From positions 10,614 through 56,979 of the forward strand of contig DAISLG010000001.1 of the NCBI GenBank assembly GCA_036820565.1: a stretch of 46,366 bases of DNA, written 5' to 3'. Position numbers and translations under genes: made by a program. The DNA is from Gaiellaceae bacterium (GTDB taxonomy: Bacteria; Actinomycetota; Thermoleophilia; Gaiellales; Gaiellaceae). Numbering within the stretch: position 1 is the stretch's first letter; each line of letters starts with the position of its first letter. Shown in pieces: positions 5,064-38,234 of the stretch. The notes under the pieces are model-generated. The model had not been told where the DNA came from and ran no database searches. It saw only the letters and a program-made list of their open reading frames with translations.

Positions 5064-5089
5064 CGCCGCGGGCCCGGCGGGCGCGGAAG

Positions 5090-22442: not shown

Positions 22443-22504
22443 CCGTTGCTCCGCAATTCCGCCGGCAGCTCGAGGGCGCAATCCAGGTCCTCGTAACGAC
22501 GCTC

Positions 22505-23809
22505 GTGTTTGCGCTGGCGGCTGCGTCGAGCAACGTCTACCTCCTCAACATCCCGGTCGGGCGGATCGCTCGGTGGGTCTTGCTGGGGATCCTCTGCGCC
22601 CTGGCGCTCATCTATGCGGCTACGAGCACGCGTTGGCGGCCGCGCCTGGGCCTGCCCGCGGCCCTCGGCGGCGCAATCGCGGTGCTCGCTTTCGCGTCCA
22701 TCCTCTGGTCGCCGGATCCGCGGCTCACGCTGGGGCGAACGGTCACGCTGCTCGTCCTCCTCGTCACAGCGGTCGCGCTCGTCTACGGGACCGAGGGACG
22801 GCCCGAGGCCGCCGGTCAGATCCTGCTCGCGATTTTCGTTGCCGTCTTCGCGGTGGCGGTGGGCGGCCTCATCGACCTCGCGGTGCGGCCGAACCTCGCC
22901 TACATTCCCGCGACCACCCAGTCTCCGCTTCGCTATAGCGGGCTTGGCGCCAACCCCAACACGATGGCGATGATTCTTGCCCTCGGTATCCCGATCGCCG
23001 TCTGGGCAGCCGCCGAAGCCGGCGCGCGGTGGACGAACGCGGTCGCGCTGGGAGCGCTGCTGCTCTTCGACGGGTCGATCGTCGCGGCTGGGTCGCGCGG
23101 AGCACTCCTGGCGGCCCTGCTCGGCGTGGCGGTCCTGATTCCCGCGCTCGTCCGGACCCGCCGAGCCCGGGTCGTCCTTGCGGCGATTGCGATCTCCGTC
23201 TTCGCGCTCGACGTGGGGGTGATGGAGCTGCCCCAGCCGGCCCGCACGAATCCGGTGCTCAACAAGCGGTTCGGCGGCTACGTGCCGCTCGGGCCGAAGG
23301 ATGCGCAGGCGGTTCGTCCCCTGGAGAATGAAATCGGGTTTCCAAAAGCGGGTGCCAGGCCGTTTCGCCGCTCACTCTTCGTGACGAGCGGGCGCTTGCC
23401 CGCCTGGATCGGCGCCTCGCGCCAGATCGGCCAGCGTCCGCTCCTCGGGTACGGGTTCGGCACAGAGCAGAGGGTCTTCGTCGATCGGTTCTATCTCTTC
23501 TACTCGTCGCTGGTCGAGAACTCCTACCTCGGGACGGCGCTGCAGCTGGGGTTGGTCGGCCTCGGGCTCCTGGTCGCGCTGCTCGCCGCCATTGCGCGTC
23601 GCGGCGTCCAAGCACTCAGGCGCGCCGACGAGGCGGGCCGGCGTGTCGCAGGAGCGTGTGCGGGCGTCGCGACGTGCGGCGTCGTGGTTGCGGCGAGCCA
23701 GTCCTACCTGACGTCGGTCGGGAGCCCGCCCGCGGCAACGTTCTGGGTGTGCGCTTTTCTGCTTGCCGGCTTGGCCCCCGCGACGGCGCGCCGGCGAGCG
23801 AGCCCGTAG
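22505..23809 (+). CDS. Wzy_C / O-antigen ligase-like polytopic membrane protein (paralogue 2); start unresolved
   Basis: It aligns with paralogue 1: PLRYSGLGANPNTMAMILALGIPIA, GSIVAAGSRGALLAALLGV, SGRLPAWIGASRQIGQRPLLGYGFG and ENSYLGTALQLGLVGL. GTG 22505 is the first canonical start after the upstream TAA. Similarity to paralogue 1 begins earlier, around 22466 (see finding). Confidence 0.7.
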   Translation: MFALAAASSNVYLLNIPVGRIARWVLLGILCALALIYAATSTRWRPRLGLPAALGGAIAVLAFASILWSPDPRLTLGRTVTLLVLLVTAVALVYGTEGRPEAAGQILLAIFVAVFAVAVGGLIDLAVRPNLAYIPATTQSPLRYSGLGANPNTMAMILALGIPIAVWAAAEAGARWTNAVALGALLLFDGSIVAAGSRGALLAALLGVAVLIPALVRTRRARVVLAAIAISVFALDVGVMELPQPARTNPVLNKRFGGYVPLGPKDAQAVRPLENEIGFPKAGARPFRRSLFVTSGRLPAWIGASRQIGQRPLLGYGFGTEQRVFVDRFYLFYSSLVENSYLGTALQLGLVGLGLLVALLAAIARRGVQALRRADEAGRRVAGACAGVATCGVVVAASQSYLTSVGSPPAATFWVCAFLLAGLAPATARRRASP

Positions 23810-25128
23810 AGCTCGGTCGCAGCCAGAACCCCGAGCGCGAGGAAGAGACCGCGGACCGGGATTGCGAAGCGCGCCTCGACGTGGTGGGTGCCGAGGACGA
23901 GGGTGTATGCGGCCAGGAAGACGACGATTCCGGCCGCCGCCCCGCCGCGCGCGAGCGCGAGCGCCGCCCCCACGAGAGCGAAGAGCAGCACGATCCAGTC
24001 GAGCACGATCATCGCCGCGAGCGCCGCACCTCCCGGCTGGTACCAGTCGTTGTGCGCAGCCCAGAGGAAGTACATGCGGTACACGTCCTCCCACACCAGC
24101 GCCGCCGGCTCGTCGCGAAGCCGCTCCCGGTAGCGCGCCCAGGCCGCGCGTCGGAGCTCACGGTCGGCGCGATCGAGGTAACGGGGGTGCGCCTGCGGGT
24201 CGCGGCGCAACTCGTCGAAGGACGGGGCGAACCGGTGCACGTTGCTCAGCTCGGCGGCGAAAGCGGGATCCTCCTCGACGTCCGCGAACGTCCGTCCGTG
24301 CCCCTCGCCGTACGCGGCAAGGAGGAAGTTGAAGCCTTCGCCCCAGTTCGCGAGCACCGGTCGGCCGGCGACGTGATTCGTCCACACGAGCCAGGGTGCG
24401 AGGAGGGCGAGCGAGCACAGAATCGCGGCCGCGACGCGCCTGAGCCGCGTACCGGGGGCTCCCACCCGAATCGCCGCGCCGATCACGACCAGCGGAATCG
24501 CGACGACGAAGACCGCGCGCGTCAGCGTGAGCGCCGTGGCGGCCGCGGCCGCGAGCGCCCACCATCGCGGCGAGTGGTGCTGCCAGGCGCGAGTGAACGC
24601 GTACGCGCCGGCGAGCACGAGCGTGCCGGCCAGCGTCTCGCTCATGACCAGACCCACGTAGTGCTTGGAATACGGGTCGAGCGCGTACGCCAGCGTGGCG
24701 AGCAGGGCGACCCGGGGACCCCACCACCGGCGCACGGCCAGCGCGAGCAGGAAGGCGCCGCACCCGAACAGGATTCCCTGGAGGAGGAGCTGGAGCTTCA
24801 GGGCGCCGCCCCAGCGGCCTTCGGCGGTTGCAGCGAGGAAGAGTGGATAGCCGGGTGGGCGGAAAGCCTGGCGCTCCGGCGCGTCCCAAACCGGTCCACG
24901 GGGAACCGGCAGCGCCGTCAGGTCGTAGAACCCGTTCGGGTACGTGAAGTACAGGCCGTCCTTGATCGGTGTCGAGTAGCTCCCGGCGAGGAGCGCCGAT
25001 CCGGCCGCGCGGTAGCTCGCGCTGTCTGTGCCCATGTTGGTGCTGAGGAGCGGCGCGTAGAGGAGGCCGTGCAGGCCGGCGACGAGCGCGATCACCAGGG
25101 CGCGTTTCTTGAACCGAGCGTCGGCCAT
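23704..25128 (-). CDS. polytopic membrane glycosyltransferase, GT-C fold (ArnT/PMT_2-like)
   Basis: ATG 25128 is chosen because it leaves a 94-bp divergent spacer. The track ORF extends to 25269. The protein has at least 10 hydrophobic spans. PPGYPLFLA and YALDPYSKHYVGLVMSETLA resemble ArnT/PMT_2 proteins. Confidence 0.65.
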   Translation of the reverse strand: MADARFKKRALVIALVAGLHGLLYAPLLSTNMGTDSASYRAAGSALLAGSYSTPIKDGLYFTYPNGFYDLTALPVPRGPVWDAPERQAFRPPGYPLFLAATAEGRWGGALKLQLLLQGILFGCGAFLLALAVRRWWGPRVALLATLAYALDPYSKHYVGLVMSETLAGTLVLAGAYAFTRAWQHHSPRWWALAAAAATALTLTRAVFVVAIPLVVIGAAIRVGAPGTRLRRVAAAILCSLALLAPWLVWTNHVAGRPVLANWGEGFNFLLAAYGEGHGRTFADVEEDPAFAAELSNVHRFAPSFDELRRDPQAHPRYLDRADRELRRAAWARYRERLRDEPAALVWEDVYRMYFLWAAHNDWYQPGGAALAAMIVLDWIVLLFALVGAALALARGGAAAGIVVFLAAYTLVLGTHHVEARFAIPVRGLFLALGVLAATELYGLARRRAVAGAKPASRKAHTQNVAAGGLPTDVR

Positions 25129-25222
25129 CGAGGAGGAGCGCCGGGCGCGAGCTCGCGCATCGGCGTGCAGGCGCGACTGTAAAGGATCGTCGCTCGCCGT
25201 CCGCACGGATAACGTCATCGCG
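25129..25222. promoter_or_regulatory. divergent spacer with 14-bp perfect palindrome GCGCGAGCTCGCGC (25145..25158)
   Basis: It lies between starts 25128 (-) and 25223 (+). I read the palindrome directly from the sequence. Confidence 0.3.
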
Positions 25223-26581
25223 ATGGGCGAGCACGCTGCGCCGGTAAGCGCCACCTCTCTCCGCCTCATCCGCGCCGACCCACACGTGGTCCTCGTGCTC
25301 GGCGCCGGCGCCGTCCTCGCGTCTGAGTACGGCTATCGGACGCGGCCGTCGGCCGCGTGGCTTCTCCTCGAGGCCGCGTTCGCCGGACTCGCCCTCGCCG
25401 AGGCCTGGCGGCGGCAGGAGCGTCTTCGGCTGCCGGCGCTGATCGCGATCGGATTCGCGTTTCACGCCGCGTGGCTTGCTCTCCACTTCGCTCTCGGTGT
25501 TCGCGGTGACGTCGACTCGAGCCTCGTGTTCCGCTGGCAGGGAAACGCGATCCTGGACGGGTACTACCCGCGGTCGGAGTACCCGGCCGGGGCTGTCCTG
25601 CTCTTCGCGCTGGAAGCGTGGCTCGGTAGCGGTACCACGCGCGTCGCGAATGCGCTGTTGATGGTGCCGTTTCAGCTGCTCTGCGTCGCCTGTGTCTGGT
25701 TGTGCCGCACGCGCTTCAGCCCGTGGTTCGCGGCCGTCGTCGCGCTGTGGCCGCTAAACGCGTTCTCGTGGGAGTTCAAATACGACCTGGTGCCAGCGGC
25801 ACTGCTCGCGGTAGGCCTCGTGCTTGCGCTGCGCGAGCGGTGGTCGCTCGCCGGCCTCGTGCTCGGCCTCGGCGTGACTGTGAAATGGACGCCCGGGTTC
25901 TCGCTGCTCGTCCTCGCCGTTTGGCTGCTCGCGTCGCGGCGCGTCCGGGATGCCCTGATCCTCGTCGCGGCGGCGGCTGCCGCGATCGCCGCGGTCTACG
26001 CCCCGATCCTGCTGTGGAACGCTGGCGCCGCGGCGGCCGCCTACTCACGGCAGAGCGGCCGGACCATTACTCCGGAATCGATCTGGTGGCTTCTACTGCG
26101 CCCGCTCGGCTTCGCCCACTTCGGCAAGCACGTTGCGTTTCCGGCCCACGCACCCCGTTGGGCCGATGCTGTCGCGGTCATGGTGCAGGCCGGCGCGATG
26201 GCGTCGCTCCTCGGAATCGCCATCGCCGTGCGAAGCCGCCCGCGGGCGGGAGTGGCGCTGGCGGCCCTCGCGCCGACCGTGTTTCTCCTCACGAACAGGA
26301 TCTTCAGCCCGCAGTTCATGATCGTCGTGCTCGTCGCCGCAAGCGTGGCGGGGGTCCTCGTGGTTCGCTCGGCCCGGGAACAGCTCGTTGTGGGAGTCGG
26401 TCTCGCGGGCGCGTGCCTCGCGAACGCGTTCGTGTACCCGTTTGCGTTGCCCTACTACTGGCTCACTTGGCAGCTCGCGTCGGCGACGTTGTTCGTGCTC
26501 GCGACCGGCGTCGTCGTCTGGCTCGTCCTGCGCATGCTTTCGCAGGACGATGGCGTGGACGTCGAGCGCCACCCGCCGTAA
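25223..26581 (+). CDS. polytopic membrane protein, DUF2029/GT87-like GT-C
   Basis: ATG 25223 lies inside track ORF 25109..26581. YPRSEYPAGAVLLFALEAWLG and LGVTVKWTPGF, plus many hydrophobic spans, resemble polyprenol-phosphate-sugar dependent GT87/DUF2029 proteins. Confidence 0.6.
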   Translation: MGEHAAPVSATSLRLIRADPHVVLVLGAGAVLASEYGYRTRPSAAWLLLEAAFAGLALAEAWRRQERLRLPALIAIGFAFHAAWLALHFALGVRGDVDSSLVFRWQGNAILDGYYPRSEYPAGAVLLFALEAWLGSGTTRVANALLMVPFQLLCVACVWLCRTRFSPWFAAVVALWPLNAFSWEFKYDLVPAALLAVGLVLALRERWSLAGLVLGLGVTVKWTPGFSLLVLAVWLLASRRVRDALILVAAAAAAIAAVYAPILLWNAGAAAAAYSRQSGRTITPESIWWLLLRPLGFAHFGKHVAFPAHAPRWADAVAVMVQAGAMASLLGIAIAVRSRPRAGVALAALAPTVFLLTNRIFSPQFMIVVLVAASVAGVLVVRSAREQLVVGVGLAGACLANAFVYPFALPYYWLTWQLASATLFVLATGVVVWLVLRMLSQDDGVDVERHPP

Positions 26582-26712
26582 TCCGGCGCCGCTCTCGCCG
26601 GCAGCGGACCTCAGCCGCGGAGACGGGCCTCGCAGCCTCGTTGTGGACGGGACTGGGAACGAGACGTCGGCAGGGCGAGTCCAGCGGGCAGGTCGCGGCT
26701 CGAGCCGGGCGA

Positions 26713-26743
26713 CGAAATGGAGCGAGCAGACCGCGCTGCTCGC
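26713..26743 (-). terminator. hairpin plus weak U-tract after the GT2 gene
   Basis: GCGAGCAG-ACCGCG-CTGCTCGC (26722..26743) forms an 8-bp stem. On the minus strand it is followed by TCCATTTCG. It lies in the 178-bp gap between convergent genes. Confidence 0.35.
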
Positions 26744-26759
26744 GCATGCGGCCGGGCGT

Positions 26760-27446
26760 TCAGCCGCGGATGCGGACCTCGAATAGGACGCGTACCGCCT
26801 TGAACCCGTCGCGCCACGTGATCTTCTTCCCTTCCGCGTAGGTGCGGCCGTAGTAGGCGATCGGGAGCTCGTATATCCGGAGCTTCCGCCGGCACACTTT
26901 CGCCGTGAGCTCCGGCTCGATGCCGAAGTCGTCTTGCCGGAGGTCTAGCGAGCGCAGGACGTCGGTGCGGAACGCCTTGTAGCCCGTCTCCATGTCGGAG
27001 AGCGTGGTGTTGTAGAGGACGTTCGTCAGCAGGCTCAGGAAGCGGTTGCCGACCAGGTGCCAGAACAGGTACGCGCGTTGGGGCCGTCCTCCGGAAAGGC
27101 GGGAACCGTAGACGACGTCCGCCACGCCGCGCTCGATCGGCTCGATCAGCGCGGGGACGTCCGCCGGGTCGTACTCGAGGTCAGCATCCTGAATGACGGC
27201 GATCTCACCGTCGATGTGCGGGATCGCCGCGCGGATCGCCGCGCCCTTGCCCCGGTGGGCCTGGCGGACGACGTGGAGGTCGAGCCCGTCGCGGCGGAGC
27301 TCGTCGAGGATCCGCGGCGTCTCGTCAGTCGAGCCGTCGTCGACGACGATGATTTGCTTGTCGAGCGGCAGCGCCTCGACGCGCTCGATCAGCTCCCGGA
27401 GCGTGCGCGCCTCGTTGTAAGCGGGGACGAGGAATGAGACGCGCAC
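26760..27446 (-). CDS. GT2 polyprenyl-phosphate glycosyltransferase (DPM1/dolichyl-phosphate glycosyltransferase-like, no TM tail)
   Basis: GTG start. Motifs are FLVPAYNE, VVDDGSTDET, IQDADLEYDP and METGYKAF. 228 aa. Confidence 0.9.
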   Translation of the reverse strand: MRVSFLVPAYNEARTLRELIERVEALPLDKQIIVVDDGSTDETPRILDELRRDGLDLHVVRQAHRGKGAAIRAAIPHIDGEIAVIQDADLEYDPADVPALIEPIERGVADVVYGSRLSGGRPQRAYLFWHLVGNRFLSLLTNVLYNTTLSDMETGYKAFRTDVLRSLDLRQDDFGIEPELTAKVCRRKLRIYELPIAYYGRTYAEGKKITWRDGFKAVRVLFEVRIRG

Positions 27447-27455
27447 CGGGCGACC

Positions 27456-27869
27456 CTAACGAGCCTTGGAACGCAGGCGCGGCTCTAGCCTCGCAAGGAA
27501 GTGAAGCGACCGGTCGCTGTGGTCCTTGAGGAGGACCGCGCGGACTGCGACTCGTCGCGCCTCGGCCAGCAGCTCGACCGGCGCCTCGGCGTGGTGAACC
27601 ACGTCGACGAGGAGGACGACGTCGACGCTCGCGTTCTCGCGCGGCAGCCTCCGCCCGTCGCAGCGGGCGGTCGGGATCGCCGTCTTCGGCCGGAGGAGAA
27701 CGTCGATGCCCTCGACCGAGACGTCAGGCCTACGCTCGGCGAGAGCGCCGCCTCCGGAGCCGACGTCGCCGACGCGGGCGTCGCGCGGAACGACGCGCGA
27801 GCTCGGCGCTCAGGCGTGCGAGGCGGCGCGGGCAGACGACCGAGCCGTGGACACGCTGAGCAGGCTCAT
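27456..27869 (-). pseudogene. small class I SAM methyltransferase ORF interrupted by an in-frame TGA (27810..27812)
   Basis: This ORF is not in the track. ATG 27869 overlaps the TGA of the upstream GT-C gene (ATGA). The translation is MSLLSVSTARSSARAASHA-TGA-APSSRVVPRDARVGDVGSGGGALAERRPDVSVEGIDV...CDGRRLPRENASVDVVLLVDVVHHAEAPVELLAEARRVAVRAVLLKDH..., ending at TAG 27456, 9 nt before the GT2 start. There is no ATG/GTG/TTG between the TGA and SAM motif I. Confidence 0.45.
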
Positions 27870-29392
27870 GCAGCGCGATCGCGCGGCCGCGCGTGCGGAC
27901 GGTCCGCGCCGCGCAGCGCCAGTGCGACCGACACCGCGCCGGCGGCGAGCGTGAGCACGAGCACGTAGCCCGTCCCCGGCGCAAGGCCGGCCGGGTTCTG
28001 CGCAGCGAGAGCGATCGCGGCCCACGCGAGCAGCGCAGCGGGCGCGACGACGAGCTCTAGGCGCTCGACGCGCGGACGCGCCGACGCCAAGACCACCGCG
28101 ACGACGGCGACGAGAACGGCGACGAAGAACAGCGAGATCGCGTACCAGCCGCTGATCCCTACGAGCGCGAGCCCCGTCTGCGTGAAGTTCTTCGCCCGGG
28201 CCCGGCCGATCCAGTCCCCGTCGTACGCGGCGAGCGCGTTCGTCGCCGTGATCGCGACCATCTGGAAGGCTGAAACGGCCGCGAGAGCTACGGTCGTCAT
28301 GGGGAACCTGCGGTACGCGGACGCGAGACCGAGCGCGAGGAACGGCAGGATCATAATCAGGTAGCGCGGCGGCCCGAGGCCTCCGAACACGGTGATCTCG
28401 AACCGGAGGCATGCCGCCCAGGCGAGCGCCACCGCAGTCACGGCGCAGACGACGATCGCCTCCGGCCTGCGCTCGCTCCGATACGCGATCACCGCACCTG
28501 CGACTCCGCAGACGAGCACCGGCGTCAGCGTGACGAGTCCCATCGCCGAGAAGAGAACGTCGAAGAGGAGCCGGAAGTCCGGCGTCCCCATTCCGAGCAC
28601 TCCGCCGATCGGCTTGAAGTTGCCCTCGTACGTCGAATGGAACGGCGAGCCGAACGCCCACGCGTTGTAGCCGAGCACGGGCGCGACGCCGACAGCGACG
28701 CCGAGCGCGTACGCGAGCCCGCGGCGAACGGCGTCCGCGCGGCTGCGAAGCGCGTACACCCCGAGCACGACCCCGATCAACGTCAGCGAGTACTCCGTCG
28801 TCACGGCGAGCCCGGCGAGGATGCCCCCGCATGCAACCGCGGCGAGAGCCGGCGGACCCAGGCGCTCGCGGAGAAGTAGAGCGAACGCCGCGAAGCCGAG
28901 CGTCGTCGAGAGGACGTGCGCGAAGAACATCGTCGAGAACGGCAGCACGAGCGTGCCGAGTCCCAGCGTTGCCGCCGCGACGAATCCGAACCCCGGCTCG
29001 ATCCTGTCGGCGGCCCACCGCACGAGCAGGAGCAGGACGACGAACGCGCAGGTCACCGACCACAGGTGGAGCGCCCAGATCACGCGCGTTGGATCGCCCG
29101 TCGTGCGCATTCCGACCGCGACGACCGCGGCGTATGCCGGCATCGTCGCGAACGCGAGGCCGGGCGCCTTGTTCGAGTACACGTGGCCCTTGTACGTCGC
29201 GACGTCACCGGTCCCGAGGTCGCCGATCTCGTGGCGGCTGACGTCGATCCGCGCCGTTCCGTCGGCCAGCGCGCGGACAAGCGCGTAGTGCGCGTTCTGG
29301 TTCCAGCCGTTGACCTGCATCGGGAACGCTGAAGCGAACGCCAGCGCGAGGATCGCGAGCAGCCCGAAGCGGCGGGTACGCATTGGCGGCAA
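27866..29392 (-). CDS. polytopic membrane protein, GT-C-like (ArnT-like loop motif)
   Basis: 508 aa with at least 11 hydrophobic spans. The first external loop, NQNAHYALVRALADGTARIDV...GDVATYKGHVYSNKAPGLAF, recalls the ArnT/PMT_2 xKPPL loop. Confidence 0.6.
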   Translation of the reverse strand: MPPMRTRRFGLLAILALAFASAFPMQVNGWNQNAHYALVRALADGTARIDVSRHEIGDLGTGDVATYKGHVYSNKAPGLAFATMPAYAAVVAVGMRTTGDPTRVIWALHLWSVTCAFVVLLLLVRWAADRIEPGFGFVAAATLGLGTLVLPFSTMFFAHVLSTTLGFAAFALLLRERLGPPALAAVACGGILAGLAVTTEYSLTLIGVVLGVYALRSRADAVRRGLAYALGVAVGVAPVLGYNAWAFGSPFHSTYEGNFKPIGGVLGMGTPDFRLLFDVLFSAMGLVTLTPVLVCGVAGAVIAYRSERRPEAIVVCAVTAVALAWAACLRFEITVFGGLGPPRYLIMILPFLALGLASAYRRFPMTTVALAAVSAFQMVAITATNALAAYDGDWIGRARAKNFTQTGLALVGISGWYAISLFFVAVLVAVVAVVLASARPRVERLELVVAPAALLAWAAIALAAQNPAGLAPGTGYVLVLTLAAGAVSVALALRGADRPHARPRDRAA

Positions 29393-29461
29393 CCAAGTCT
29401 AGCGCGCGCCCCGACGACGCCACGTCGGACGCGACCGTCAACTCTTCGTTAACTTCGGACG
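29393..29461. promoter_or_regulatory. divergent intergenic spacer
   Basis: 69 bp lie between starts 29392 (-) and 29462 (+). GC is locally lower at caactcttcgttaacttcgg. Confidence 0.3.
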
Positions 29462-30910
29462 ATGCAACGCCTCAGGCGTCCTACTCCGCGCGCGGCGATC
29501 GTCGCGGCGGCGGTGCTCGGGGGCCTCGCGGTCCGGGCGTGGATCCTGACGTCGCCGCTGTCGGCGCTCGATTCCGACGAGGCGATCGTCGGCTTGATGG
29601 CGCAGCACGCGCTCCGCGGCGAGTTCACGGTGCTGTACTGGCTCAACAACTACGGCGGCCCGCACGAGGCGTGGCTGACCGCGGTCGTGTTCGCCGCGCT
29701 CGGCTCCTCGACGCTCGCGCTGAAGCTGACCACCCTCGCCCTCTTTGCGGTAGGCGCGCTCCTGATCTGGCGGGTCGGACTTCGTACCGTCGCGAGTCCC
29801 GCAGCAGAGCTCGCCGCGGCGCTCTTCTGGGTCGCCCCCGCGTATCTCGTCTGGTGGACGACGAAGGCGCGCGGTTTCTATGCCTTCGGCCTCGTGGCCG
29901 AGCTCGTCGTCCTGCTGCTCGCTCTCCGCCTCAGGCAACGCGACTCGCGCCTCGACGCCGTCGGGCTCGGCTTAGCCTTCGGCCTCGGCTTCTGGGCGAA
30001 TCCGGAGGTGCTCGTGGTCGCCCTCCCGGCGCTTGCGTGGCTTGCCTGGCAGCGACCTCGGGCGCTGCGCCTCACGTGGCTCGCGCTGCCCGCCTTCGTG
30101 CTCGCCGTCTCCCCGTGGCTCGCCTGGAACGCGCGGAACAACTGGCTGTCGCTTGACCTTCGGTCGGTTGCGGGTGAGCGCAGCACCTACACCGGCCGCC
30201 TCACCGACCTCTTCCGGGTCGTGTGGCCGACCTGGCTTGGTGTGCGTGTCCCGTTCTCGCTCGACTGGTTGCTAGGCGCCGCGGTCGGCATCGTCGTGGT
30301 GGCCGCCTCGCTCGTGGGCCTCGCGCTCCTGGTCCGCAGCCGTCCGCCGCGGCTCGGCGTTCTGATTCTCATCGCCGTGGCGTTTCCGTTCTTGTACGCC
30401 GCCTCGTCCTTCGCGTTCTTCGTCGCCGAGCCTCGCTACCTCGTTCTCTTCAGCCCCGTGCCCGCGCTCCTCCTCGCGTGGTTCCTGGGTCGGTACCCGT
30501 GGCCTGTCGCCGCGTCCACGCTTGCGGCCGTCTTCGCGCTCAGCCTCGGCGGCCTCGTCCGAATGGAGCACGAGGGCCTCTACGAGCCGCTCGGCCCGCA
30601 CGTCGCCTCGGCGACCGACATCTCGCCCCTGATCGAGCTCCTGCGTCGCGAGCACGTCGACCGCGTCCTCGCGGACTACTGGATCGCGTACCGCCTCAAC
30701 TTTGAGACGCACGAGCGTGTGCTTGCGACGTCGACCGGCTTCGTTCGTGACCAACACGCCGACCGGATCGTTCGCGCGAGCGCCTGGCCGGCGCACGTGT
30801 TCGTACGAGGTACCCCGATGGAGTTGCGTGCGCGTCGCCGACTCGAGCGGCGCGGCTACCGACGGTTGACGACGGAGGACTTCTCTGTCTACGTCCACCG
30901 CCAGCTGTAG
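29462..30910 (+). CDS. GT-C fold membrane glycosyltransferase (ArnT/PMT_2-like), tandem paralogue 1
   Basis: WILTSPLSALDSDEAIVGLMA (acidic first-loop motif), WWTTKARGFYAFGLV, LRLRQRDSRLDA, and a soluble C-terminal domain with DYWIAYRLNF...RRGYRRL. Confidence 0.75.
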   Translation: MQRLRRPTPRAAIVAAAVLGGLAVRAWILTSPLSALDSDEAIVGLMAQHALRGEFTVLYWLNNYGGPHEAWLTAVVFAALGSSTLALKLTTLALFAVGALLIWRVGLRTVASPAAELAAALFWVAPAYLVWWTTKARGFYAFGLVAELVVLLLALRLRQRDSRLDAVGLGLAFGLGFWANPEVLVVALPALAWLAWQRPRALRLTWLALPAFVLAVSPWLAWNARNNWLSLDLRSVAGERSTYTGRLTDLFRVVWPTWLGVRVPFSLDWLLGAAVGIVVVAASLVGLALLVRSRPPRLGVLILIAVAFPFLYAASSFAFFVAEPRYLVLFSPVPALLLAWFLGRYPWPVAASTLAAVFALSLGGLVRMEHEGLYEPLGPHVASATDISPLIELLRREHVDRVLADYWIAYRLNFETHERVLATSTGFVRDQHADRIVRASAWPAHVFVRGTPMELRARRRLERRGYRRLTTEDFSVYVHRQL

Positions 30911-30970
30911 CCGCGGGCAGGCTGTTCCTTCGTTGGAAATCCAAGTCGTCGGCGCCAGACTGCCAGACAC

Positions 30971-30976
30971 AGGAGG
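30971..30976 (+). promoter_or_regulatory. Shine-Dalgarno AGGAGG
   Basis: AGGAGG lies 6 nt upstream of ATG 30983. Confidence 0.6.
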
Positions 30977-30982
30977 ATCGAG

Positions 30983-32443
30983 ATGAGACGCATCGTGACC
31001 CTTAGGGCCGTCGAGCGCGATCCGCTGCTCGCGGCGGTCGTCTCAGGCGCAGTCCTCGCCGGCGTCCTCCTTCGCATCTGGATTCTCACATCGCCGCTGG
31101 GCACGCTCGATGCGGACGAGGCGGTGATCGGGCTGATGGCGCGCGAGGTCACCAGTGGGCATCTGACCGTGTTCTTCTGGGGACAGGAGTACGGGGGCTC
31201 GCAGGAGGCCCTGTTGACCGGCCTCCTGTTCGCGATCGCCGGACAGAGCGTGGTCGCTCTCAAGCTCGTTCCCGTCGCCCTTTACGCGCTCGCGACTGTG
31301 CTTGTCTGGCGTGTCGGCCGACGCACCGTCGGCGAGCCCGGGGCGACTCTAGCGGCTGCCCTCGCCTGGATCTGGCCGCCCTTTCCCCTGTGGTGGTCGA
31401 CGAAGGCGAGAGGCTTCTACGGGATCGGACTCGTCAGCACCATGCTCGTCATCCTCTTCGCGCTCCGGCTTCGCGAACGCGATTCTCGCCTCGATGCAGC
31501 GGTGCTTGGTCTTGCGCTCGGAGCGGGCTGGTGGGCAACGCCGCTGACGGTGCTGTTCGCGTTGCCAGTCGTCGGGTGGCTCGTCTGGGCTCGGCCGCGC
31601 GTTGTCCGCCTCGGTTGGGCGACCGGGGCAGGCTTCCTCTTTGCCGCTTCACCTTGGTTCATCCGCAACGTCCGCGGCGGAGGGGGCTCGCTCCACATGA
31701 AGGCGTTCGTGACGTCGAAGACGACGTACTCCGGTCGCCTGGACGATTTTGTGACGAACGTCCTCCCGAGCTGGCTCGGCCTTCGGATCCCGTACGCGCC
31801 GCAATGGCTGCTCGGACCGGCTGTGGGGGGGATGGCGTTGGCCGTTGTCGTCGGGGCGATTGCAGCCGTCGGCTTGCGGCGTCGTGCGCAGCTCGCGCCG
31901 TTGCTCGCGATCGCGGCGTCGTTCCCGCTGACGTACGCGATCACCGGCTTCGGCGCGCAGCACGAGCCGCGCTACCTCACGTTTCTCGTCCCGGTCGTCG
32001 CGCTTCCCGCGGGCTGGCTACTCGCCCGCCGACGCGTACTCGCGCCGGTCGGGCTGATCGTTGCGCTCGGGTTTTCGACGCTCGTCCTGATCAGGATGGA
32101 TCGCTGGGGTCTGTACAAGCCGCGGGCGCCCGACGTCGTCGTGCCGCAGGACGTCTCGCCGGCGATCGATTTGCTGGAGCGCGAGGGCATCCACGCAGTC
32201 GAGAGCGACTACTGGCTCGCCTACCGCATCGCCTTCGCGTCGCAGGAGCGCGTGATCGTCGCGACGCCGTATACGCAGCGAAACGCCCACTGGCAACGGC
32301 GCGTGGCGTCGGAGCGTTTGCATCCGTGGCTCTTCCTCCGCGGGTCGCGGACCGAGGTCGAGGCGCGGCCGCTCCTGACGACGCGCGGTTATCGTCGGAT
32401 CGAGAGCGGTGACTACGTGCTCTACGTGCCTCCGAGTGCGTGA
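30983..32443 (+). CDS. GT-C fold membrane glycosyltransferase (ArnT/PMT_2-like), tandem paralogue 2
   Basis: WILTSPLGTLDADEAVIGLMA, WWSTKARGFYGIGLV, LRLRERDSRLDA, DYWLAYRIAF...TRGYRRI. It is collinear with the preceding gene. Confidence 0.75.
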   Translation: MRRIVTLRAVERDPLLAAVVSGAVLAGVLLRIWILTSPLGTLDADEAVIGLMAREVTSGHLTVFFWGQEYGGSQEALLTGLLFAIAGQSVVALKLVPVALYALATVLVWRVGRRTVGEPGATLAAALAWIWPPFPLWWSTKARGFYGIGLVSTMLVILFALRLRERDSRLDAAVLGLALGAGWWATPLTVLFALPVVGWLVWARPRVVRLGWATGAGFLFAASPWFIRNVRGGGGSLHMKAFVTSKTTYSGRLDDFVTNVLPSWLGLRIPYAPQWLLGPAVGGMALAVVVGAIAAVGLRRRAQLAPLLAIAASFPLTYAITGFGAQHEPRYLTFLVPVVALPAGWLLARRRVLAPVGLIVALGFSTLVLIRMDRWGLYKPRAPDVVVPQDVSPAIDLLEREGIHAVESDYWLAYRIAFASQERVIVATPYTQRNAHWQRRVASERLHPWLFLRGSRTEVEARPLLTTRGYRRIESGDYVLYVPPSA

Positions 32444-33873
32444 CGCACGCCGGCCGGGAGGCGGCGAAGTCGAGCGCCGCGGCGCAGGACGATCGTCCCG
32501 CCCTCGGCACACTCGACGCCGAAGCCGTGGGCGAAGCGGTCGCGGACGAGCCCGCGCAGGTCGTCCAGCGTGAGCGGAAACCGCCACGTGGACGTGTCGA
32601 TCGCGATGTAGTCGGTCCCGGCGAGCGGCCGCCCGTCGAGCACGTAGATGGACCGGCGGTGCGAGAGGTGCGGTACGAGCGCGCTGGTCGCCGAGACCGA
32701 CGCCCGGGGCGGGATCCTCCGCAGGCAGGCGCGGATCGACGCGATCTGGCTCGGGGTCGTGTACCGGTGGAGCTCGTCGAGCGGACGCAGCCGGCCGAAG
32801 CTGAAGTAGAGGCCCGCGAGGAGTACAGCCACGCCTAGCGCCGCCGGCACGAGCGGCGCGCCCCCGGCGGACCAGCGCCGAAGTCGCGCCGCACCGTCGA
32901 TCGCCGCGAACGCGAGCATCGGCGCGAGCACGAGGGAATAGTGGAATCCCTGCGGCGCCCAGTGCGACGGCTTGTCCGAGAGGAACCGTGCCGCGAGCGG
33001 CGGCAGCATCGCGACGGCGAGCGGAGAGGCGAGCGGCAGCGCGAGCCAGGGCGCGAACAGGTTGAACAGTGCAAGGAGCTTGTCCCGCGGGGTGAAAAAG
33101 AGGCGGATCGTGTCGATCGGGTGGAGGACGACGTGAACCGCGGCCTCGCCAGGCCCGTCACCGAGCCGCGTGTAATACCACTGCTGGTAGGCGCGATCGG
33201 CCAGCGCTGGGATGACGAGCTTGACCGCGACGATGAACCAGACGAAGGTCGCGGCGATCAGAGCGCCCCCGAGCCGGAACCGGCGCTGGAGCAGCAGATA
33301 GAGGCCGAGGCCGACGAAGGCGAGCGTGACGTCCTCGCGGGTCAGGCAGCCGAGCACGGCCATCGTCCAGAGCAGGCGCCAGCGTCGGGTGACCGTGGCG
33401 TAGAGCGCAAAGGAGACGATCGGCGCGGCGAAGGCGAGCTCGTGGAAGTCGAAGATGTCGCCGCCGAGGACACCCCAGAAGGCGAGATACGCGACCTCGA
33501 AGGCATACGCGGCCGAGGTGCCGAGCTGCTGGCGGGCCCAGAAGAAGATCGGCAACCCCGCGAGCGCGATCAGCACGGCTTGGGCGATCAGCAGGACGCG
33601 CGCGTCGTCCCAGATCCAGTACAGCGGCGCGAGCGTCATCAGGATCGGGTGGAAATGGTCTCCGAGCGCGTTCGGCAGCCGGAGGATCGTGTTCGGGACG
33701 AACTCGAAGCGGCTGTATCCCCAGACCGTCTGGTCGAAGATGCCGAGGTCGTAGCCGTTCGACCCGTAGTGGTCATGGCGGAAAATCGCGGCTGCTCCGA
33801 GCCCCACGGCGGCGACCGCCGCGACTGCCACCGGCGCCGCGTCCGCCGGGCGAACCCGCGGCAGCTCAGGCAT
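32422..33873 (-). CDS. DUF2079-like polytopic membrane protein
   Basis: ATG 33873 gives an 8-nt overlap with the upstream methyltransferase. The track ORF extends to 34002. The hallmark-like N-terminus is HYGSNGYDLGIFDQTVWGYS, with many hydrophobic spans and a soluble C-terminal ~110 aa. Confidence 0.7.
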   Translation of the reverse strand: MPELPRVRPADAAPVAVAAVAAVGLGAAAIFRHDHYGSNGYDLGIFDQTVWGYSRFEFVPNTILRLPNALGDHFHPILMTLAPLYWIWDDARVLLIAQAVLIALAGLPIFFWARQQLGTSAAYAFEVAYLAFWGVLGGDIFDFHELAFAAPIVSFALYATVTRRWRLLWTMAVLGCLTREDVTLAFVGLGLYLLLQRRFRLGGALIAATFVWFIVAVKLVIPALADRAYQQWYYTRLGDGPGEAAVHVVLHPIDTIRLFFTPRDKLLALFNLFAPWLALPLASPLAVAMLPPLAARFLSDKPSHWAPQGFHYSLVLAPMLAFAAIDGAARLRRWSAGGAPLVPAALGVAVLLAGLYFSFGRLRPLDELHRYTTPSQIASIRACLRRIPPRASVSATSALVPHLSHRRSIYVLDGRPLAGTDYIAIDTSTWRFPLTLDDLRGLVRDRFAHGFGVECAEGGTIVLRRGARLRRLPAGVRHALGGT

Positions 33874-34549
33874 GCGCGGCGACGTAGTACTGCGCGCCGA
33901 GCGGGACCGGCGCGAGCGCGCGCTCGGCGCGTCCGAGCACTGCCGATCGCCACGGGAAGAAGATGATGTAGCGCTGCTCGACCGGTTCCAGGCCCACCGC
34001 ACGCAACCGGCCGCGCGTCTCGCGCCGGCCGAGCAGGATCGCGTCGTCGTCGAACTCGCAGCGGGACACGGCGAGCCTCGTCAGCGGGTTGAGCGGGTTG
34101 TGCTCCAAGACAACCGCTAGGCCTCCGGGCCGGGTGACGCGGGCGAGCTCGGCGACGAAGACCGGCCGGTCCGGCGGCGGGACGTGGTGGAGGACGCACA
34201 CGGCGAACGCGAGATCGAACGAGCCGTCTTCGAAGGGCAGCTGGGTGCCGTCGGCGACGCGATAGTCGACCTTGGGGTTCGCCGTGCGCGCTGCCTCGAT
34301 CATCGGCTCGGACGGATCGATTCCCGTGAGGGATCCGAGCGCGCCGAGATGTCTGTCGATCAGCCCGCCCCCACAGCCGACGTCGAGCGCGCGCACCGAG
34401 CCGGGATGCGCGAGCCGCCGGCGGACGACGTCGAGCAGGCTCCGTGCCTTGGCCTGGAGAAAGAAGTCCTGCTCCTGGCCGCTAAAGCCGATCGAGCGCT
34501 CGACGAGCTCCTCGTAGCGGTCGGCGTAGGGGTCGAAGCCGCTGCTCAT
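33866..34549 (-). CDS. class I SAM-dependent methyltransferase
   Basis: It has an ATGA overlap with the upstream GT-C gene. Motif I is ALDVGCGGGLIDRHL, followed by LPFEDGSFDLAFAVCVLHHV and TRPGGLAVVLEHNPLNPL. Confidence 0.85.
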   Translation of the reverse strand: MSSGFDPYADRYEELVERSIGFSGQEQDFFLQAKARSLLDVVRRRLAHPGSVRALDVGCGGGLIDRHLGALGSLTGIDPSEPMIEAARTANPKVDYRVADGTQLPFEDGSFDLAFAVCVLHHVPPPDRPVFVAELARVTRPGGLAVVLEHNPLNPLTRLAVSRCEFDDDAILLGRRETRGRLRAVGLEPVEQRYIIFFPWRSAVLGRAERALAPVPLGAQYYVAAHA

Positions 34550-36057
34550 CGAGCGTAGATCTTTGTTGTATCGACGGTCGCGATCAGCCGGTAACCGCCG
34601 CGTACGATCGCGCCCTGCCAGTCTGGTGCGGGCGGCGGCACGTCCCAGTTTTGATAGACGAGGAGGTGCGTCCGGCGCTCCGCCACCATCCGCTCAACGT
34701 CGGCGACGCTCGCCATCCGGTACCGCTGCGCCTCCGCCTCGGAGAGCGAGGCGGCCGAGCTCGGCGCGAAATCCGTTTCGAGTCCGTGCACCGGCAGCGC
34801 GTGCGACCCCCACGCATAGCCGGGCCAGGACATGAGGACGCGTTCGCCTGGCCGCGTCCGCGCGTTAACCGCGGCCGCCGTCTCCTCGACCCGCGCGATC
34901 CGCAGCTCGGTACTGCGACGGATGTAACGGCTTGCGTCGACGGCACCGAGGAGCAGATAGACCGCCACGAGCGCGGCGCCGGCGCCCAGCAGCGCCCGCC
35001 TGAGCGGCTCGTCGGCCGCGACTGAAGCGCGCGCCCCCAGCGCTGCGACGAGCTCGAGTACGCCGATCACAAGGAACGGCACGACGGTGCAGAGGTACTG
35101 GCCGTACGTCGGCGTGGGCAGGAGGCTCGCGACGCCCAGCAGCGCGGCGATCGAGAGCGCGAGCGACACGCGCCGCTCGAGCGCGAAAAGCAGGACCGCC
35201 GCCGCCGCGGCGGCGGCGAACAGAAGCAGGAACTGCGGCATCCCTCCGTCCGGCGTCCCGATCCCGAGGATGTTCAGGACGGTGCGGCCCTTCTGGTCGA
35301 GATCGCCGACCAGGCTGCCGCCGGCGCTTTTGGTCGAGTGGTAGCGGACATTGTCGAAGAAGAAACGGCTCGGGTCGACGACGAAGAGCACGATCGAGGG
35401 CAGGAGTCCGGCCGCGAATCCGACACCGAGCGCGGTCAGCCTCCCCCGGCCGTGGCGCGCCGCGGCAACGGCGAAGGCAGGCAGCGCCGACGCGAAGATG
35501 AGGCGCACATCGACCGCGAGGCCGAGGAGCAGGCCGCAGGCGAGCCAGCGCGCGCGGGAGATGCCGGCACGCTCGACGAGGACGTACGCCGCGAAGAGCA
35601 ACAGCGTCGAGAGCGCGTACGTCTTCACGGTCGGATACCACGCGAGGACGAGTCCCGAGCCCGCGAAGAGCAGGAGCCCGAGCGAAGCCGTCCGGGGGCC
35701 GAACCGCGGGCGGGCGTGCCTGTACAGGAGCAGCCCAACCCCCGTTGCGAACGCAACTGACAGGAGCCGTGCGGCGTACCAGCTCTCGCCGGTTGCGACG
35801 CCCCACACACCGTAGACATACGGCAGCAGGGGCATTTGCACGTAGAGGAAGTCGTGGTAGGGCACATCCCCGCGCAGCGCCAGCTTGGCAGCTGCGAGGT
35901 ATGTCCCCTCGTCGATGTCGACATAGCGCCAGATCGCGAGCGGGACGAGCACGAGCGCCTGCACTGCGACGACGGCGACGTCGCCTAGCGCGCGTGAACG
36001 GGCGCGGGTGGAGCGGCGCGCAACCGCCTGAGCGTGTCTGGACAGGCCGGCCGTCAC
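34546..36057 (-). CDS. GT-C fold membrane glycosyltransferase (PMT_2/GT39-like)
   Basis: GTG 36057 lies 1 nt after the stop of the GtrB-like gene. The first-loop acidic motif is YVDIDEGTYLAAAKLALRGDVPYHDFLYVQMPLLPYVYG. The protein has at least 10 hydrophobic spans. Confidence 0.75.
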   Translation of the reverse strand: MTAGLSRHAQAVARRSTRARSRALGDVAVVAVQALVLVPLAIWRYVDIDEGTYLAAAKLALRGDVPYHDFLYVQMPLLPYVYGVWGVATGESWYAARLLSVAFATGVGLLLYRHARPRFGPRTASLGLLLFAGSGLVLAWYPTVKTYALSTLLLFAAYVLVERAGISRARWLACGLLLGLAVDVRLIFASALPAFAVAAARHGRGRLTALGVGFAAGLLPSIVLFVVDPSRFFFDNVRYHSTKSAGGSLVGDLDQKGRTVLNILGIGTPDGGMPQFLLLFAAAAAAAVLLFALERRVSLALSIAALLGVASLLPTPTYGQYLCTVVPFLVIGVLELVAALGARASVAADEPLRRALLGAGAALVAVYLLLGAVDASRYIRRSTELRIARVEETAAAVNARTRPGERVLMSWPGYAWGSHALPVHGLETDFAPSSAASLSEAEAQRYRMASVADVERMVAERRTHLLVYQNWDVPPPAPDWQGAIVRGGYRLIATVDTTKIYAR

Positions 36058-36058
36058 G

Positions 36059-37033
36059 CTAGTGTCGAACGGCGACCGGCTGCTCGCCGCCGATCGCCAT
36101 CGGCAGGTCGCCGAACCCGTGCGCCTCGCGGATCACGTACAGCGGCCGGGCCTTGACCTCCTCGTAGATCCGCCCGATGTAGAGGCCGGTCATCCCGATC
36201 ACCGTCAGCTGGATCCCGCCGAGGAACGAGACGACGACGAGAAGCGAGGCCCAGCCGGGGACGACGAACGCCCCCGCGAGCTTTGCGACGATCGCGCCGA
36301 TCCCGACGACGAACGACGCGACGGAGAACAGGAAGCCGACGACGAGCGCCGTCCGCAGGGGGAGGTCCGAGAAGCTGACGATGCCGTCGACCGCGAGCCG
36401 GAGCGATTTCCGGAACGAGTACTTCGGCTCGCCGGCGTAGCGCTGCTCGCGGCGGTAGGGCACTCCGATCTGGCGGAAGCCGATCCAGCTGAACATGCCG
36501 CGCACGTAGCGGTTCCGCTCGCGCATCGAGCGGAAGGTGTCGAGAGCCCGGCGGTCGACCAGGCGGAAGTCGCCCACGTCGACCGGAATGTCCACATTCG
36601 AGAGCCGGCGCAGCAGCCGGTAGAAGCCCGCGGCCAGGTGTCGTTTCAGCCAGCCGTCGCCTTCGCGCCGCTCGCGCACCGCGTAGACGACCTCGTAGCC
36701 CTCGCGCCAGCGAGCGACGAGCTCGGGCACGAGCTCGGGCGGATCCTGGAGATCGGCGTCGAGCACGATCGCGGCCTCCCCGAGCGCCAGGTCGAGCCCT
36801 GCCGAGATCGCGACCTGGTGGCCGAAGTTGCGCGCGAAGCGCACGACCTTGCAGCGAGGATCGCGCTCGTGGAGCTCGATCAGCAGCTCGCGGCTTCCGT
36901 CCGAGCTCGCGTCGTCGACGAACACGAACTCGCTGTCGCCGTCGAGGCCGTCGGCGACGGCTGAGAGCCGCGTGTGCAGCTCGGGGAGTGTGTCCCGCTC
37001 GTTGTAGACCGGGATGACGAACGAGTAGCGCAC
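36059..37033 (-). CDS. GT2 polyprenyl-phosphate glycosyltransferase with C-terminal TM helices (GtrB/ArnC-like)
   Basis: FVIPVYNE, FVDDASSDGS and LDADLQDPPE, followed by two C-terminal hydrophobic spans (ALVVGFLFSVASFVVGIGAIV, LLVVVSFLGGIQLTVIGMTGLYI). Confidence 0.9.
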   Translation of the reverse strand: MRYSFVIPVYNERDTLPELHTRLSAVADGLDGDSEFVFVDDASSDGSRELLIELHERDPRCKVVRFARNFGHQVAISAGLDLALGEAAIVLDADLQDPPELVPELVARWREGYEVVYAVRERREGDGWLKRHLAAGFYRLLRRLSNVDIPVDVGDFRLVDRRALDTFRSMRERNRYVRGMFSWIGFRQIGVPYRREQRYAGEPKYSFRKSLRLAVDGIVSFSDLPLRTALVVGFLFSVASFVVGIGAIVAKLAGAFVVPGWASLLVVVSFLGGIQLTVIGMTGLYIGRIYEEVKARPLYVIREAHGFGDLPMAIGGEQPVAVRH

Positions 37034-37097
37034 GCTGGATCAGCGCCGATCGTAGCCGCACCGGCCGGCGAGCTGGTCAGGCGCTACCTTTTCTCGC
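37034..37097. promoter_or_regulatory. divergent intergenic spacer
   Basis: 64 bp lie between starts 37033 (-) and 37098 (+). Confidence 0.3.
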
Positions 37098-38210: not shown

Positions 38211-38234
38211 GCCTCGCGGCTATCATCGGGTGCG

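Follow-up and report, generated by a model that had tools for sequence, protein, structure and literature searches.

A probable extracytoplasmic glycosylation island with seven GT-C-type membrane proteins in a Thermoleophilia cell-envelope glycan locus

Introduction

Thermoleophilia (Gaiellales, Solirubrobacterales) are abundant soil actinobacteria, and our literature search on their cell-wall glycosyltransferases gave incidental mentions only, none on the subject itself. Here, we analyze a stretch of 46,366 nt (hereafter the window) from a Gaiellaceae bacterium, an uncultured soil actinobacterium of this class (assembly GCA_036820565.1, contig DAISLG010000001.1, positions 10,614-56,979 of the forward strand). 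Within it lies a block of eleven genes, named A to K below, seven of which encode polytopic membrane proteins of the GT-C glycosyltransferase type. The remaining four are two GT2 glycosyltransferases (C and K), one intact S-adenosylmethionine (SAM) methyltransferase (I) and one methyltransferase pseudogene (D). The block had been singled out in an original prediction made from the sequence alone, which also placed it inside a large surface-glycan locus; a Pfam scan of the window's proteins confirms that nearly all 46 kb form a single cell-envelope glycan locus.

The eleven-gene block

At about 70% G+C the raw list of open reading frames is crowded with spurious frames, and genes were therefore called by third-position GC (GC3). 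All eleven genes were recovered in this way at the coordinates first predicted (Table 1). Public gene calls, made independently on six metagenome contigs nearly identical to the window (99.92-99.99% nucleotide identity over 21.5 kb), agree with the gene set and differ twice, starting E nine bases later and giving J an alternative start. Many metagenome contigs, of both JGI and ENA origin, encode a protein identical to the DUF2079 protein of the window (H). Going by the names attached to homologues, the organism belongs to class Thermoleophilia of the Actinomycetota, near Gaiellales. The tight gene junctions in the prediction proved equally exact: a 1-nt gap between K and J, an ATGA overlap of J and I, an 8-nt overlap of I and H, an ATGA overlap of E and D, and a 9-nt gap between D and C.

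The seven GT-C reading frames are all intact, with a coding-type GC3 of 0.82-0.89, and the presence of seven such genes within 13.3 kb cannot be chance. They fall in at least five mutually very divergent families, and BLASTP among all seven aligned only F with G (45.5% identity), the one pair recognizable as paralogues. We therefore rejected recent tandem duplication as the source of all seven; judged from these alignments, the array is an assembly of different families and not a recent tandem amplification.

Table 1. Features of the block (A to K) and of the surrounding locus, in window coordinates
Feature	Coordinates	Strand	Size and remarks
A: GT-C, PMT_2 family	23704..25128	-	474 aa
B: GT-C, GT87-like	25223..26581	+	452 aa
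C: soluble GT2, DPM1/AglJ/PpgS type	26760..27446	-	228 aa, no transmembrane segment
D: SAM methyltransferase pseudogene	27456..27869	-	
E: GT-C, family without Pfam model	27866..29392	-	505-508 aa; gene callers' start 29383 gives 505 aa
F: GT-C, PMT_2 family	29462..30910	+	482 aa
G: GT-C, PMT_2 family	30983..32443	+	486 aa
H: DUF2079, GT-C fold	32422..33873	-	483 aa
I: class I SAM methyltransferase, cytoplasmic	33866..34549	-	227 aa
J: GT-C, PMT_2 family	34546..36057	-	503 aa; 472 aa by some callers
K: GtrB-type polyprenyl-phosphate hexosyltransferase	36059..37033	-	324 aa, GT2 + C-terminal transmembrane hairpin
Conserved core: Wzy_C, GT4, 129-aa single-transmembrane protein, Wzy_C	19608..23809	+	Pfam
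Wzm/Wzt ABC exporter	5006..7256	+	Pfam ABC2_membrane, ABC_tran, Wzt_C
Small phosphoglycosyltransferase, Bac_transf	44734..45312	+	Pfam Bac_transf 6e-64
Intact SAM methyltransferases	4092-5063, 8501-9652, 18627-19442, 33866-34549, 42761-43792, 43799-44737, 45309-46094		

Seven membrane proteins of the GT-C type

The seven membrane proteins had been called GT-C-like, and this identity holds for all of them, five by Pfam (four PMT_2, one GT87) and E and H by structure. We took the Pfam gathering score as the pass mark for family membership, and the curated NCBIfam cutoffs likewise. Against PMT_2 (cutoff 26.1), A reaches 32.9, F 31.6, G 29.6 and J 35.2 bits, all above the gathering score, and B passes the GT87 cutoff of 25 marginally with 26.1 bits, a match flagged as 'weak' in public precomputed annotations. 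H matches DUF2079 at 2.2e-68 (231.9 bits against a threshold of 28.2; model positions 2-401 of 459). The Pfam scan gave no match for E, and the NCBIfam scan nothing specific for any of the seven. Sequence searches of the Protein Data Bank (PDB) with A, B, F and J returned no matches at E<=1, which leaves B without a sequence-level match to PimE; profiles of the E family and of DUF2079 likewise found nothing meaningful there, and for these two only structure comparison was informative.

We modeled E and H with AlphaFold2 (AF2) from alignments of 39 and 32 sequences, obtaining pLDDT 88.5 and pTM 0.91 for E, and pLDDT 87.9 and pTM 0.88 for H. Compared by Foldseek with the PDB, the E model is closest to ArnT (5ezm/5f15; E 1.8e-5, probability 1.0), followed by STT3, AglB, ALG9/12, EmbA/B, Pmt4 and PimE. 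For H the best 11 matches are all GT-C proteins (ALG12, AglB, STT3, ArnT, PglB and EmbC; probability >=0.99), and assorted transporters follow below 0.2. At probability >=0.96 both models match GT-C proteins exclusively, ahead of any transporter. Direct comparison of the predicted models shows the GT-C fold for E and H. The other families are tied to these two by hhalign of small family alignments (J-E 96%, F/G-E 95%, A-J 86% and B-DUF2079 75%), and A, B, F, G and J are accordingly predicted GT-C proteins by Pfam scores above the gathering score together with links of 75-96%.

All seven have short N-termini rich in K and R ahead of a first transmembrane helix (TM1), and the loop behind this helix holds conserved acidic residues, an arrangement consistent with a predicted N-in topology that places the first loop outside. 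The AF2 helix maps of E and H and hydropathy of all seven show polytopic proteins. The acidic first-loop motifs already noticed in the sequence, LDSDEA in F, LDADEA in G, VDIDEG in J and YDLGIFDQ in H, lie directly after TM1 and are conserved in homologues, the F/G motif as L[DE]xDEA and that of J through D47, D49 and E50. Similarly, D50, E55 and D63 in the first loop of E are invariant in its family, of which E keeps every invariant residue, and H has invariant D42, D47, D90, D142 and H144, with D42 and D47 in the first loop. D35 in the first loop of A and a GDxD motif in B (D96/D98) are conserved across their homologues. The C-terminal domains comprise about 114 soluble residues in F, about 124 soluble residues in J and an alpha/beta domain of about 120 residues in H.

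These data also bear on whether most of the seven could instead be transporters or flippases, as might be imagined of polytopic proteins with at least 10 transmembrane helices, five of them with marginal Pfam scores. Transporters appear in the Foldseek comparisons only at probability <=0.2, behind all GT-C matches, a test that the original prediction had itself put forward; the acidic first-loop motifs are conserved, and hhalign ties all families to the two modeled GT-C proteins. We find a transporter identity scarcely credible.

The E family is large, with 1198 clusters (50% identity) at E<=1e-30, 4528 at E<=1e-10 and 7321 at E<=1e-3. A few of its members are labeled ArnT-like by JGI, and it has weak NCBIfam similarity to the Leptospira LA_3751/LA_3752 family.

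Two candidate donor synthases and a methyltransferase

The two GT2 enzymes had been described as polyprenyl-phosphate-sugar synthases, and our comparisons agree. K matches Synechocystis GtrB (5EKP) at 2.2e-88 over residues 3-312 of 324 (300 bits) and ArnC at 1e-49 (173 bits), and carries a hydrophobic C-terminal tail at 218-286 that forms a transmembrane hairpin; by these matches K is a predicted full-length GtrB homologue. Its nearest NCBIfam models are PgfS (269 of 500 bits) and ArnC (170 of 529), and as it reaches no equivalog cutoff its donor sugar is not assignable. C contains a Glycos_transf_2 domain (1e-32) and no transmembrane segment; its best PDB match is the Pyrococcus dolichol-phosphate mannose synthase (DPMS) 5MLZ (2.6e-19, over the whole catalytic domain). 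Its top NCBIfam models are AglJ (150 of 325), a haloarchaeal Dol-P-hexose transferase (87 of 375) and PpgS (61 of 370), with ArnC also among them and all below cutoff, so C is a putative enzyme that resembles polyprenyl-phosphate-sugar synthases and falls short of curated equivalog membership. K and C share 38% identity over 150 aa.

A 733-aa metagenome protein, P0093, has an N-terminal soluble GT2 catalytic domain naturally fused to a DUF2079 membrane domain. This fusion serves as Rosetta-stone evidence that DUF2079 proteins use the product of a GT2. Together with the GT2 synthases adjacent to the array, it suggests that the GT-C enzymes would use sugar donors linked to lipid phosphate.

The intact methyltransferase I matches Methyltransf_11 at 2.5e-26 and has neither a transmembrane segment nor a signal sequence. 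Its nearest PDB relatives, a phosphatidylethanolamine N-methyltransferase (8ys9) and a D-glucose O-methyltransferase (6uv6), would be compatible with sugar methylation and are not diagnostic of it.

The second methyltransferase gene, D, had been described as interrupted, and it is a true remnant. Its ATG overlaps the stop codon of E, 19 codons follow, and an in-frame TGA at 27812-27810 precedes 117 sense codons. These 117 codons hold methyltransferase motif I (VGDVGSGGG) and the central methyltransferase core; the C-terminus is truncated, and the match to Methyltransf_11 covers profile positions 44-86 of 95 only. D and I are 37% identical over 79 aa. We rejected an assembly artefact as the explanation, since the stop and the truncation are identical across six independent assemblies from different samples, in none of which D is called as a gene.

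A conserved pair at a variable site

To compare the block with its relatives, contexts were gathered from homologues of DUF2079 (plus a genome scan), of E and of methyltransferase I, and all context loci (handles beginning with L) were annotated by phmmer against the window's 41 proteins. Two loci keep the order K-J-I-H: L007, which lies on a contig of 762 kb and whose DUF2079 protein is 82% identical, and L012 (83%). In three Solirubrobacterales metagenome-assembled genomes (L047, L051 and L052; DUF2079 about 35% identical) an operon of I then K is divergent from the DUF2079 gene, and in L093 and L095 (a Thermoleophilaceae metagenome-assembled genome) an A-type PMT_2 gene follows the neighboring genes K and I. 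The GT-C member of the conserved unit is thus DUF2079 in some genomes and A-type PMT_2 in others, with no fixed order of GT2, GT-C, methyltransferase and DUF2079. Beyond these loci, DUF2079 lies beside a small GT2 and an epimerase in Chloroflexi and Dormibacterota, and about 6 kb or less from a K-type GT2 in Acidobacteriota.

What recurs is the pairing of I with K, which upholds the earlier remark on a recurring methyltransferase partner: the GtrB and methyltransferase pair was found in eight loci across Thermoleophilia. I adjoins a K-like GT2 in L047, L051, L052, L093, L094 (where the two overlap by 4 nt) and L095, and is in the same operon in L007 and L012; a K-type GT2 is immediately adjacent in three of the four contexts anchored on the methyltransferase. 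The conserved neighbor of I is K and not any particular GT-C. Synteny therefore points to a GtrB-type GT2, a methyltransferase and a GT-C as a robust conserved unit. Given this neighborhood and the cytoplasmic location of I, we place its action at K's sugar, which it would methylate prior to flipping.

The remainder of the block is less stable. The window and its closest relative, L007, are collinear at about 80% nucleotide identity save for the segment 26477-29492 (C, D and E) and the paralogue G, both of which only the window has of the two; L007 has one F/G-type gene. On the contig of P0124, a 72%-identical E homologue is followed by an intact 200-aa methyltransferase and then a 391-aa GT2 with GT2_TM_C, and there as well as in L011 a homologue of the 228-aa GT2 stands directly before an A-type PMT_2 gene. 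Since the window's E-D-C string is absent from L007 and differently arranged on the P0124 contig and in L011, it reads as a rearranged, partly deleted cassette. The block had been predicted to consist of two modules repeating the same logic. The order of the first (K-J-I-H) stands, being kept in L007 and L012, and the second (E, D, C) does not, as it is missing from L007 and reordered on the P0124 contig and in L011.

The site itself is constant. In every Gaiellales-like relative the island abuts the same core of Wzy_C, a small transmembrane protein, GT4, Wzy_C, a methyltransferase and GT4, and the Wzy_C/GT4/Wzy_C block is present in L007-L011, L014, L015, L093 and L095. Homologues of A adjoin Wzy_C in these same nine loci, suggesting that A is a conserved 'core' GT-C, always next to a Wzy_C gene, and B, with homologues in L007, L008, L010, L011, L014 and L015, is the second core GT-C of the Gaiellales-like relatives. 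The number of GT-C genes at the site is one in L093 and L095, three to four in L014 and L015, five to six in L007-L011 and on the P0124 contig, and seven in the window. Among the roughly one dozen examined versions of this variable hot spot, none is as expanded as that of the window. Other cassettes found there include DegT, an acyltransferase, a GT2 and a GT-C (L008, L009, L011 and the P0124 contig), and DUF6044 and DUF6311 proteins also occur at the site in relatives. Taken together, these comparisons suggest a hot spot at a fixed site, where GT-C cassettes are gained, lost and rearranged.

Three smaller observations concern the same site. The Wzy_C gene at 22505-23809 (+) and A converge, and their 3' ends overlap by 106 nt (23704-23809); this overlap is kept in every relative examined, at 39-106 nt (106 in L007, 39 in L093 and 77 in L095). 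The island of L008 contains a UbiA-type prenyl-phosphate transferase and a GMC/FAD oxidoreductase (2045-2962 and 11856-13328), reminiscent of decaprenyl-P-arabinose (DPA) synthesis. A GT2 with a short-chain epimerase, a donor-making cassette, is also among the relatives' island cassettes (L009, 5580-6443).

Such turnover raises the question of whether much of the array is evolutionary debris, duplicated or imported GT-C genes that are partly inactive and whose number is functionally unimportant. The block does contain a real methyltransferase pseudogene, the nearest relative lacks both G and the C-D-E segment, and cassette order is scrambled among relatives. However, the seven GT-C frames are intact with coding-type GC3, no invariant residue of its family is lost in E, neither F nor G shows decay despite their divergence to 45% identity, and the sequence is stable across six samples. 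On this evidence we judge the debris explanation very unlikely.

A model for the island

We consider it likely that the eleven genes make up a mosaic and expanded island for extracytoplasmic glycosylation, set in a large cell-envelope glycan locus. At the cytoplasmic face, the GtrB-type K and the soluble, DPM1/AglJ-type C would each charge polyprenyl phosphate with a monosaccharide drawn from a nucleotide sugar. Methyltransferase I, which is conserved as the partner of K, probably adds a methyl group to K's sugar at the nucleotide-linked or lipid-linked stage, and a flippase encoded elsewhere would then flip the lipid-linked sugars. Outside the membrane, the seven GT-C enzymes would transfer the sugars by means of their conserved first-loop acidic residues, each with its own acceptor and linkage specificity. 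The most likely acceptor would be the ABC-exported glycan of the flanking genes, which encode a small phosphoglycosyltransferase, GT4 and GT2 enzymes, Wzm/Wzt and two Wzy_C-type proteins. The division of labor already proposed for the block, with donors made inside and transfer outside the membrane, is well supported by the enzyme types, the coupling of GT2 and GT-C genes and the glycan-locus context.

Several points weigh against this model. There are two donor synthases for seven transferases, so some donors would have to be shared or come from elsewhere. Five of the seven GT-C assignments carry marginal Pfam scores (26-35 bits) without a sequence-level PDB match. I received no specific family assignment in the NCBIfam and PDB comparisons, which makes its proposed substrate a guess, and we infer the acceptor solely from gene neighborhood. 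One cassette is visibly decayed (pseudogene D), and not every gene need be active. Finally, no GtrA, MATE, SMR or Wzx flippase was found among the scanned called genes of the window, a scan that covered all but the gene at 11222-12454 (-). The conserved 129-aa protein of the core (22053-22442) was considered as a GtrA-type flippase and rejected, as it has a single N-terminal transmembrane segment and no Pfam match. Unlinked, shared flippases and soluble GT-A enzymes both have precedents (PMC8035078).

The choice of acceptor invites an alternative in which the island glycosylates proteins, such as S-layer or membrane proteins with Ser/Thr-rich regions, in the manner of actinobacterial Pmt/Ppm1 or streptococcal PgfS-PgfM1-PgfE-PgfM2. 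Protein O-glycosylation by GtrB-type and GT-C enzymes is documented (PMC12041528), PgfS is the nearest NCBIfam model of K (269 bits), PMT_2 includes relatives of protein mannosyltransferases, and the two Wzy_C proteins could be O-oligosaccharyltransferases. Yet K does not reach the 500 bits required by the PgfS model, the PMT model (PF02366) matches none of the seven, the window holds no candidate acceptor protein, and the neighboring genes are typical of a polysaccharide pathway; we hold protein glycosylation to be improbable.

More speculatively, the GtrB and methyltransferase pair might yield a methylated polyprenyl-phosphate sugar, an O-methyl-hexose donor of a kind not described, which a DUF2079 or PMT_2 GT-C would transfer outside, at a hot spot of one to seven GT-C cassettes that diversifies Thermoleophilia surface glycans as serotype-converting loci do in pathogens. 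We offer this full scenario tentatively, as a possibility with the odds against it. Sugar donors that are both methylated and lipid-linked may be the product of a route defined by the trio of a GtrB-type GT2, a SAM methyltransferase and a GT-C.

Relation to known glycosylation systems

The layout had originally been considered impossible to map to a described pathway. That verdict does not hold, because the logic is that of known multi-component systems, including Gtr, CsbB-YfhO, Arn and mycobacterial arabinogalactan and lipoarabinomannan (LAM) assembly (PMC11127046, PMC8035078, PMC13223929, PMC3485146). Closest in outline are the Gtr-type systems, such as GtrA/GtrB/Gtr* of Shigella and Salmonella, CsbB/GtcA/YfhO, GtlA/GtlB, GacI-J-K-L and the Lactococcus CsdAB/CD/EF systems with CflA (PMC11127046, PMC8035078). 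In both, a GT2 on the cytoplasmic face makes (or, in the window, would make) a polyprenyl-P-monosaccharide that a GT-C transfers outside, and GT2 and GT-C genes lie side by side within a glycan locus; K, as a full-length GtrB homologue, fits this plan. In contrast to the one GT-C per Gtr-type system, the window has seven from at least five families in one block. It also differs in its Thermoleophilia host, in having no flippase gene found in the window, in pairing a SAM methyltransferase with the GtrB-type enzyme, and in the use of DUF2079 and the Pfam-less E family, which have no characterized member.

Mycobacterial and corynebacterial envelope assembly, in which Ppm1 with PimE and MptA-D serve lipomannan (LM) and LAM and AftA-D with EmbA-C act on exported galactan (PMC3485146, PMC13223929, PMC11127046), resembles the window in its actinobacterial host and in the use of several GT-C enzymes in series on one glycan with polyprenyl-P-sugar donors. 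The window likewise has a DPM1-type soluble synthase (C), a GT87-like protein (B) and an ABC exporter. Unlike that assembly, it has no UbiA/DprE genes, its enzymes are 450-510 aa long without Emb-type carbohydrate-binding module (CBM) domains, searches of the PDB with A, B, F and J found no sequence-level orthology to Emb, Aft, Mpt or PimE, and island content ranges from one to seven GT-C genes across relatives.

This comparison is the basis of a second alternative, that the seven GT-C proteins jointly build a whole extracytoplasmic glycan domain from polyprenyl-P-sugars, as in mycobacterial arabinan and mannan domains, where galactan exported by Wzm/Wzt is extended by AftA-D and EmbA-C and LM/LAM are elongated by MptA-D (PMC11127046, PMC13223929). 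The actinobacterial host, seven divergent GT-C proteins including one GT87-like, the ABC exporter in the same locus and the UbiA-type and FAD-oxidoreductase pair in the island of L008 all speak for it. Against it, a single GT-C suffices at the site in L093 and L095, the seven all lack a large CBM-type domain at the C-terminus like those of Emb or AftD, and with an island content so highly variable, optional side-chain decoration is a better fit than a polymer domain that is essential. We regard domain building as rather unlikely and favor the decorating glycosylation island.

The Arn pathway (ArnC/ArnD/ArnT), which transfers L-Ara4N onto lipid A, shares with the window the K-ArnC match (1e-49), the ArnT match as the best structural hit of E, and a formyltransferase-domain protein and CE4 deacetylase 3-4.5 kb from K. 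These two genes (40846-41550 and 40037-40849, respectively) belong to a group beside K, within 36059-41550, that also includes an acyltransferase_3 and an AsnB-type amidotransferase; the group is kept in L007, three of its four members (AsnB, deacetylase and formyltransferase) also in L014, and it is a possible amino-sugar (Arn-like) branch. A reading in which the formyltransferase and deacetylase feed K and an ArnT-like GT-C was not adopted, as K is much nearer to GtrB (300 bits) than to ArnC (173 bits), and it is also weakened by the K-I-PMT_2 units of L093 and L095, which have no formyltransferase gene near K. In L093 a Polysacc_deac_1 gene does lie upstream of the K-like GT2, at a distance of about 5 kb, and L095 has neither a formyltransferase nor a deacetylase. 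The window further differs from Arn in having no ArnB-type aminotransferase and a monoderm host without a lipid A acceptor. For the amino-sugar cassettes of L008, L009, L011 and the P0124 contig (DegT, acyltransferase, GT2 and GT-C), an Arn-like reading is possible.

Archaeal Agl N-glycosylation employs the Dol-P-hexose synthases AglJ and AglD, the AglP methyltransferase and AglS, a Dol-P-Man GT-C-like transferase. AglJ is the best NCBIfam match of C. The nearest precedent for the trio of K, I and a GT-C is this pathway's grouping of a lipid-phosphate-sugar synthase with a membrane transferase and a SAM methyltransferase whose substrate is a lipid-linked sugar. Agl differs in belonging to another domain of life and in its acceptor, a protein-bound N-glycan, and C is far below the AglJ cutoff (150 vs 325 bits).

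The kind of system, multi-component extracytoplasmic glycosylation, is therefore known. We found no description of seven GT-C proteins of at least five families in one 13-kb block, of a conserved GtrB-methyltransferase pair, of DUF2079 and the E family as GT-C proteins in such systems (the literature search returned no paper on DUF2079), or of an expansion from one to seven at a fixed site in Thermoleophilia. The locus suggests that Thermoleophilia, like mycobacteria, use many GT-C enzymes to elaborate their surface glycans on the outside of the membrane, the enzymes coming from unrelated families. It also allows a fold and likely role to be assigned to DUF2079 and to a Pfam-less family of more than 1000 clusters (50% identity). 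The variation from one to seven GT-C genes at one site offers a natural series for linking cassettes to glycan structures and plausibly also to selection by phage or environment.

The surrounding glycan locus

Outside the block, the Bac_transf phosphoglycosyltransferase likely starts polymer synthesis. By Pfam, the rest of the locus contains four GT4 and two further GT2 enzymes, an NDP-hexose C-methyltransferase, several epimerases or dehydratases, a GFO-type oxidoreductase, an acyltransferase_3, an AsnB-type amidotransferase, a CE4 deacetylase and a formyltransferase-domain protein. The window has seven intact SAM methyltransferases, among them one TylCIII-like NDP-hexose C-methyltransferase and one of FkbM type, and Wzt (5961-7256) bears a Wzt_C CBM; together these suggest a heavily methylated, terminally capped, ABC-exported glycan. 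The two Wzy_C proteins of this ABC-transporter-type locus could be ligases or O-oligosaccharyltransferases.

At the left end (19-1704), a NeuC-type UDP-GlcNAc 2-epimerase adjoins a CMP-sugar cytidylyltransferase, and the locus probably makes a nonulosonic acid too (sialic, legionaminic or pseudaminic-like). A 427-aa protein without a Pfam match (2739-4022, -) has an HDVD-type motif and may have a CE4-like fold. The 410-aa protein at 11222-12454 (-) looks like an NDP-sugar dehydrogenase, to go by its N-terminal Rossmann motif.

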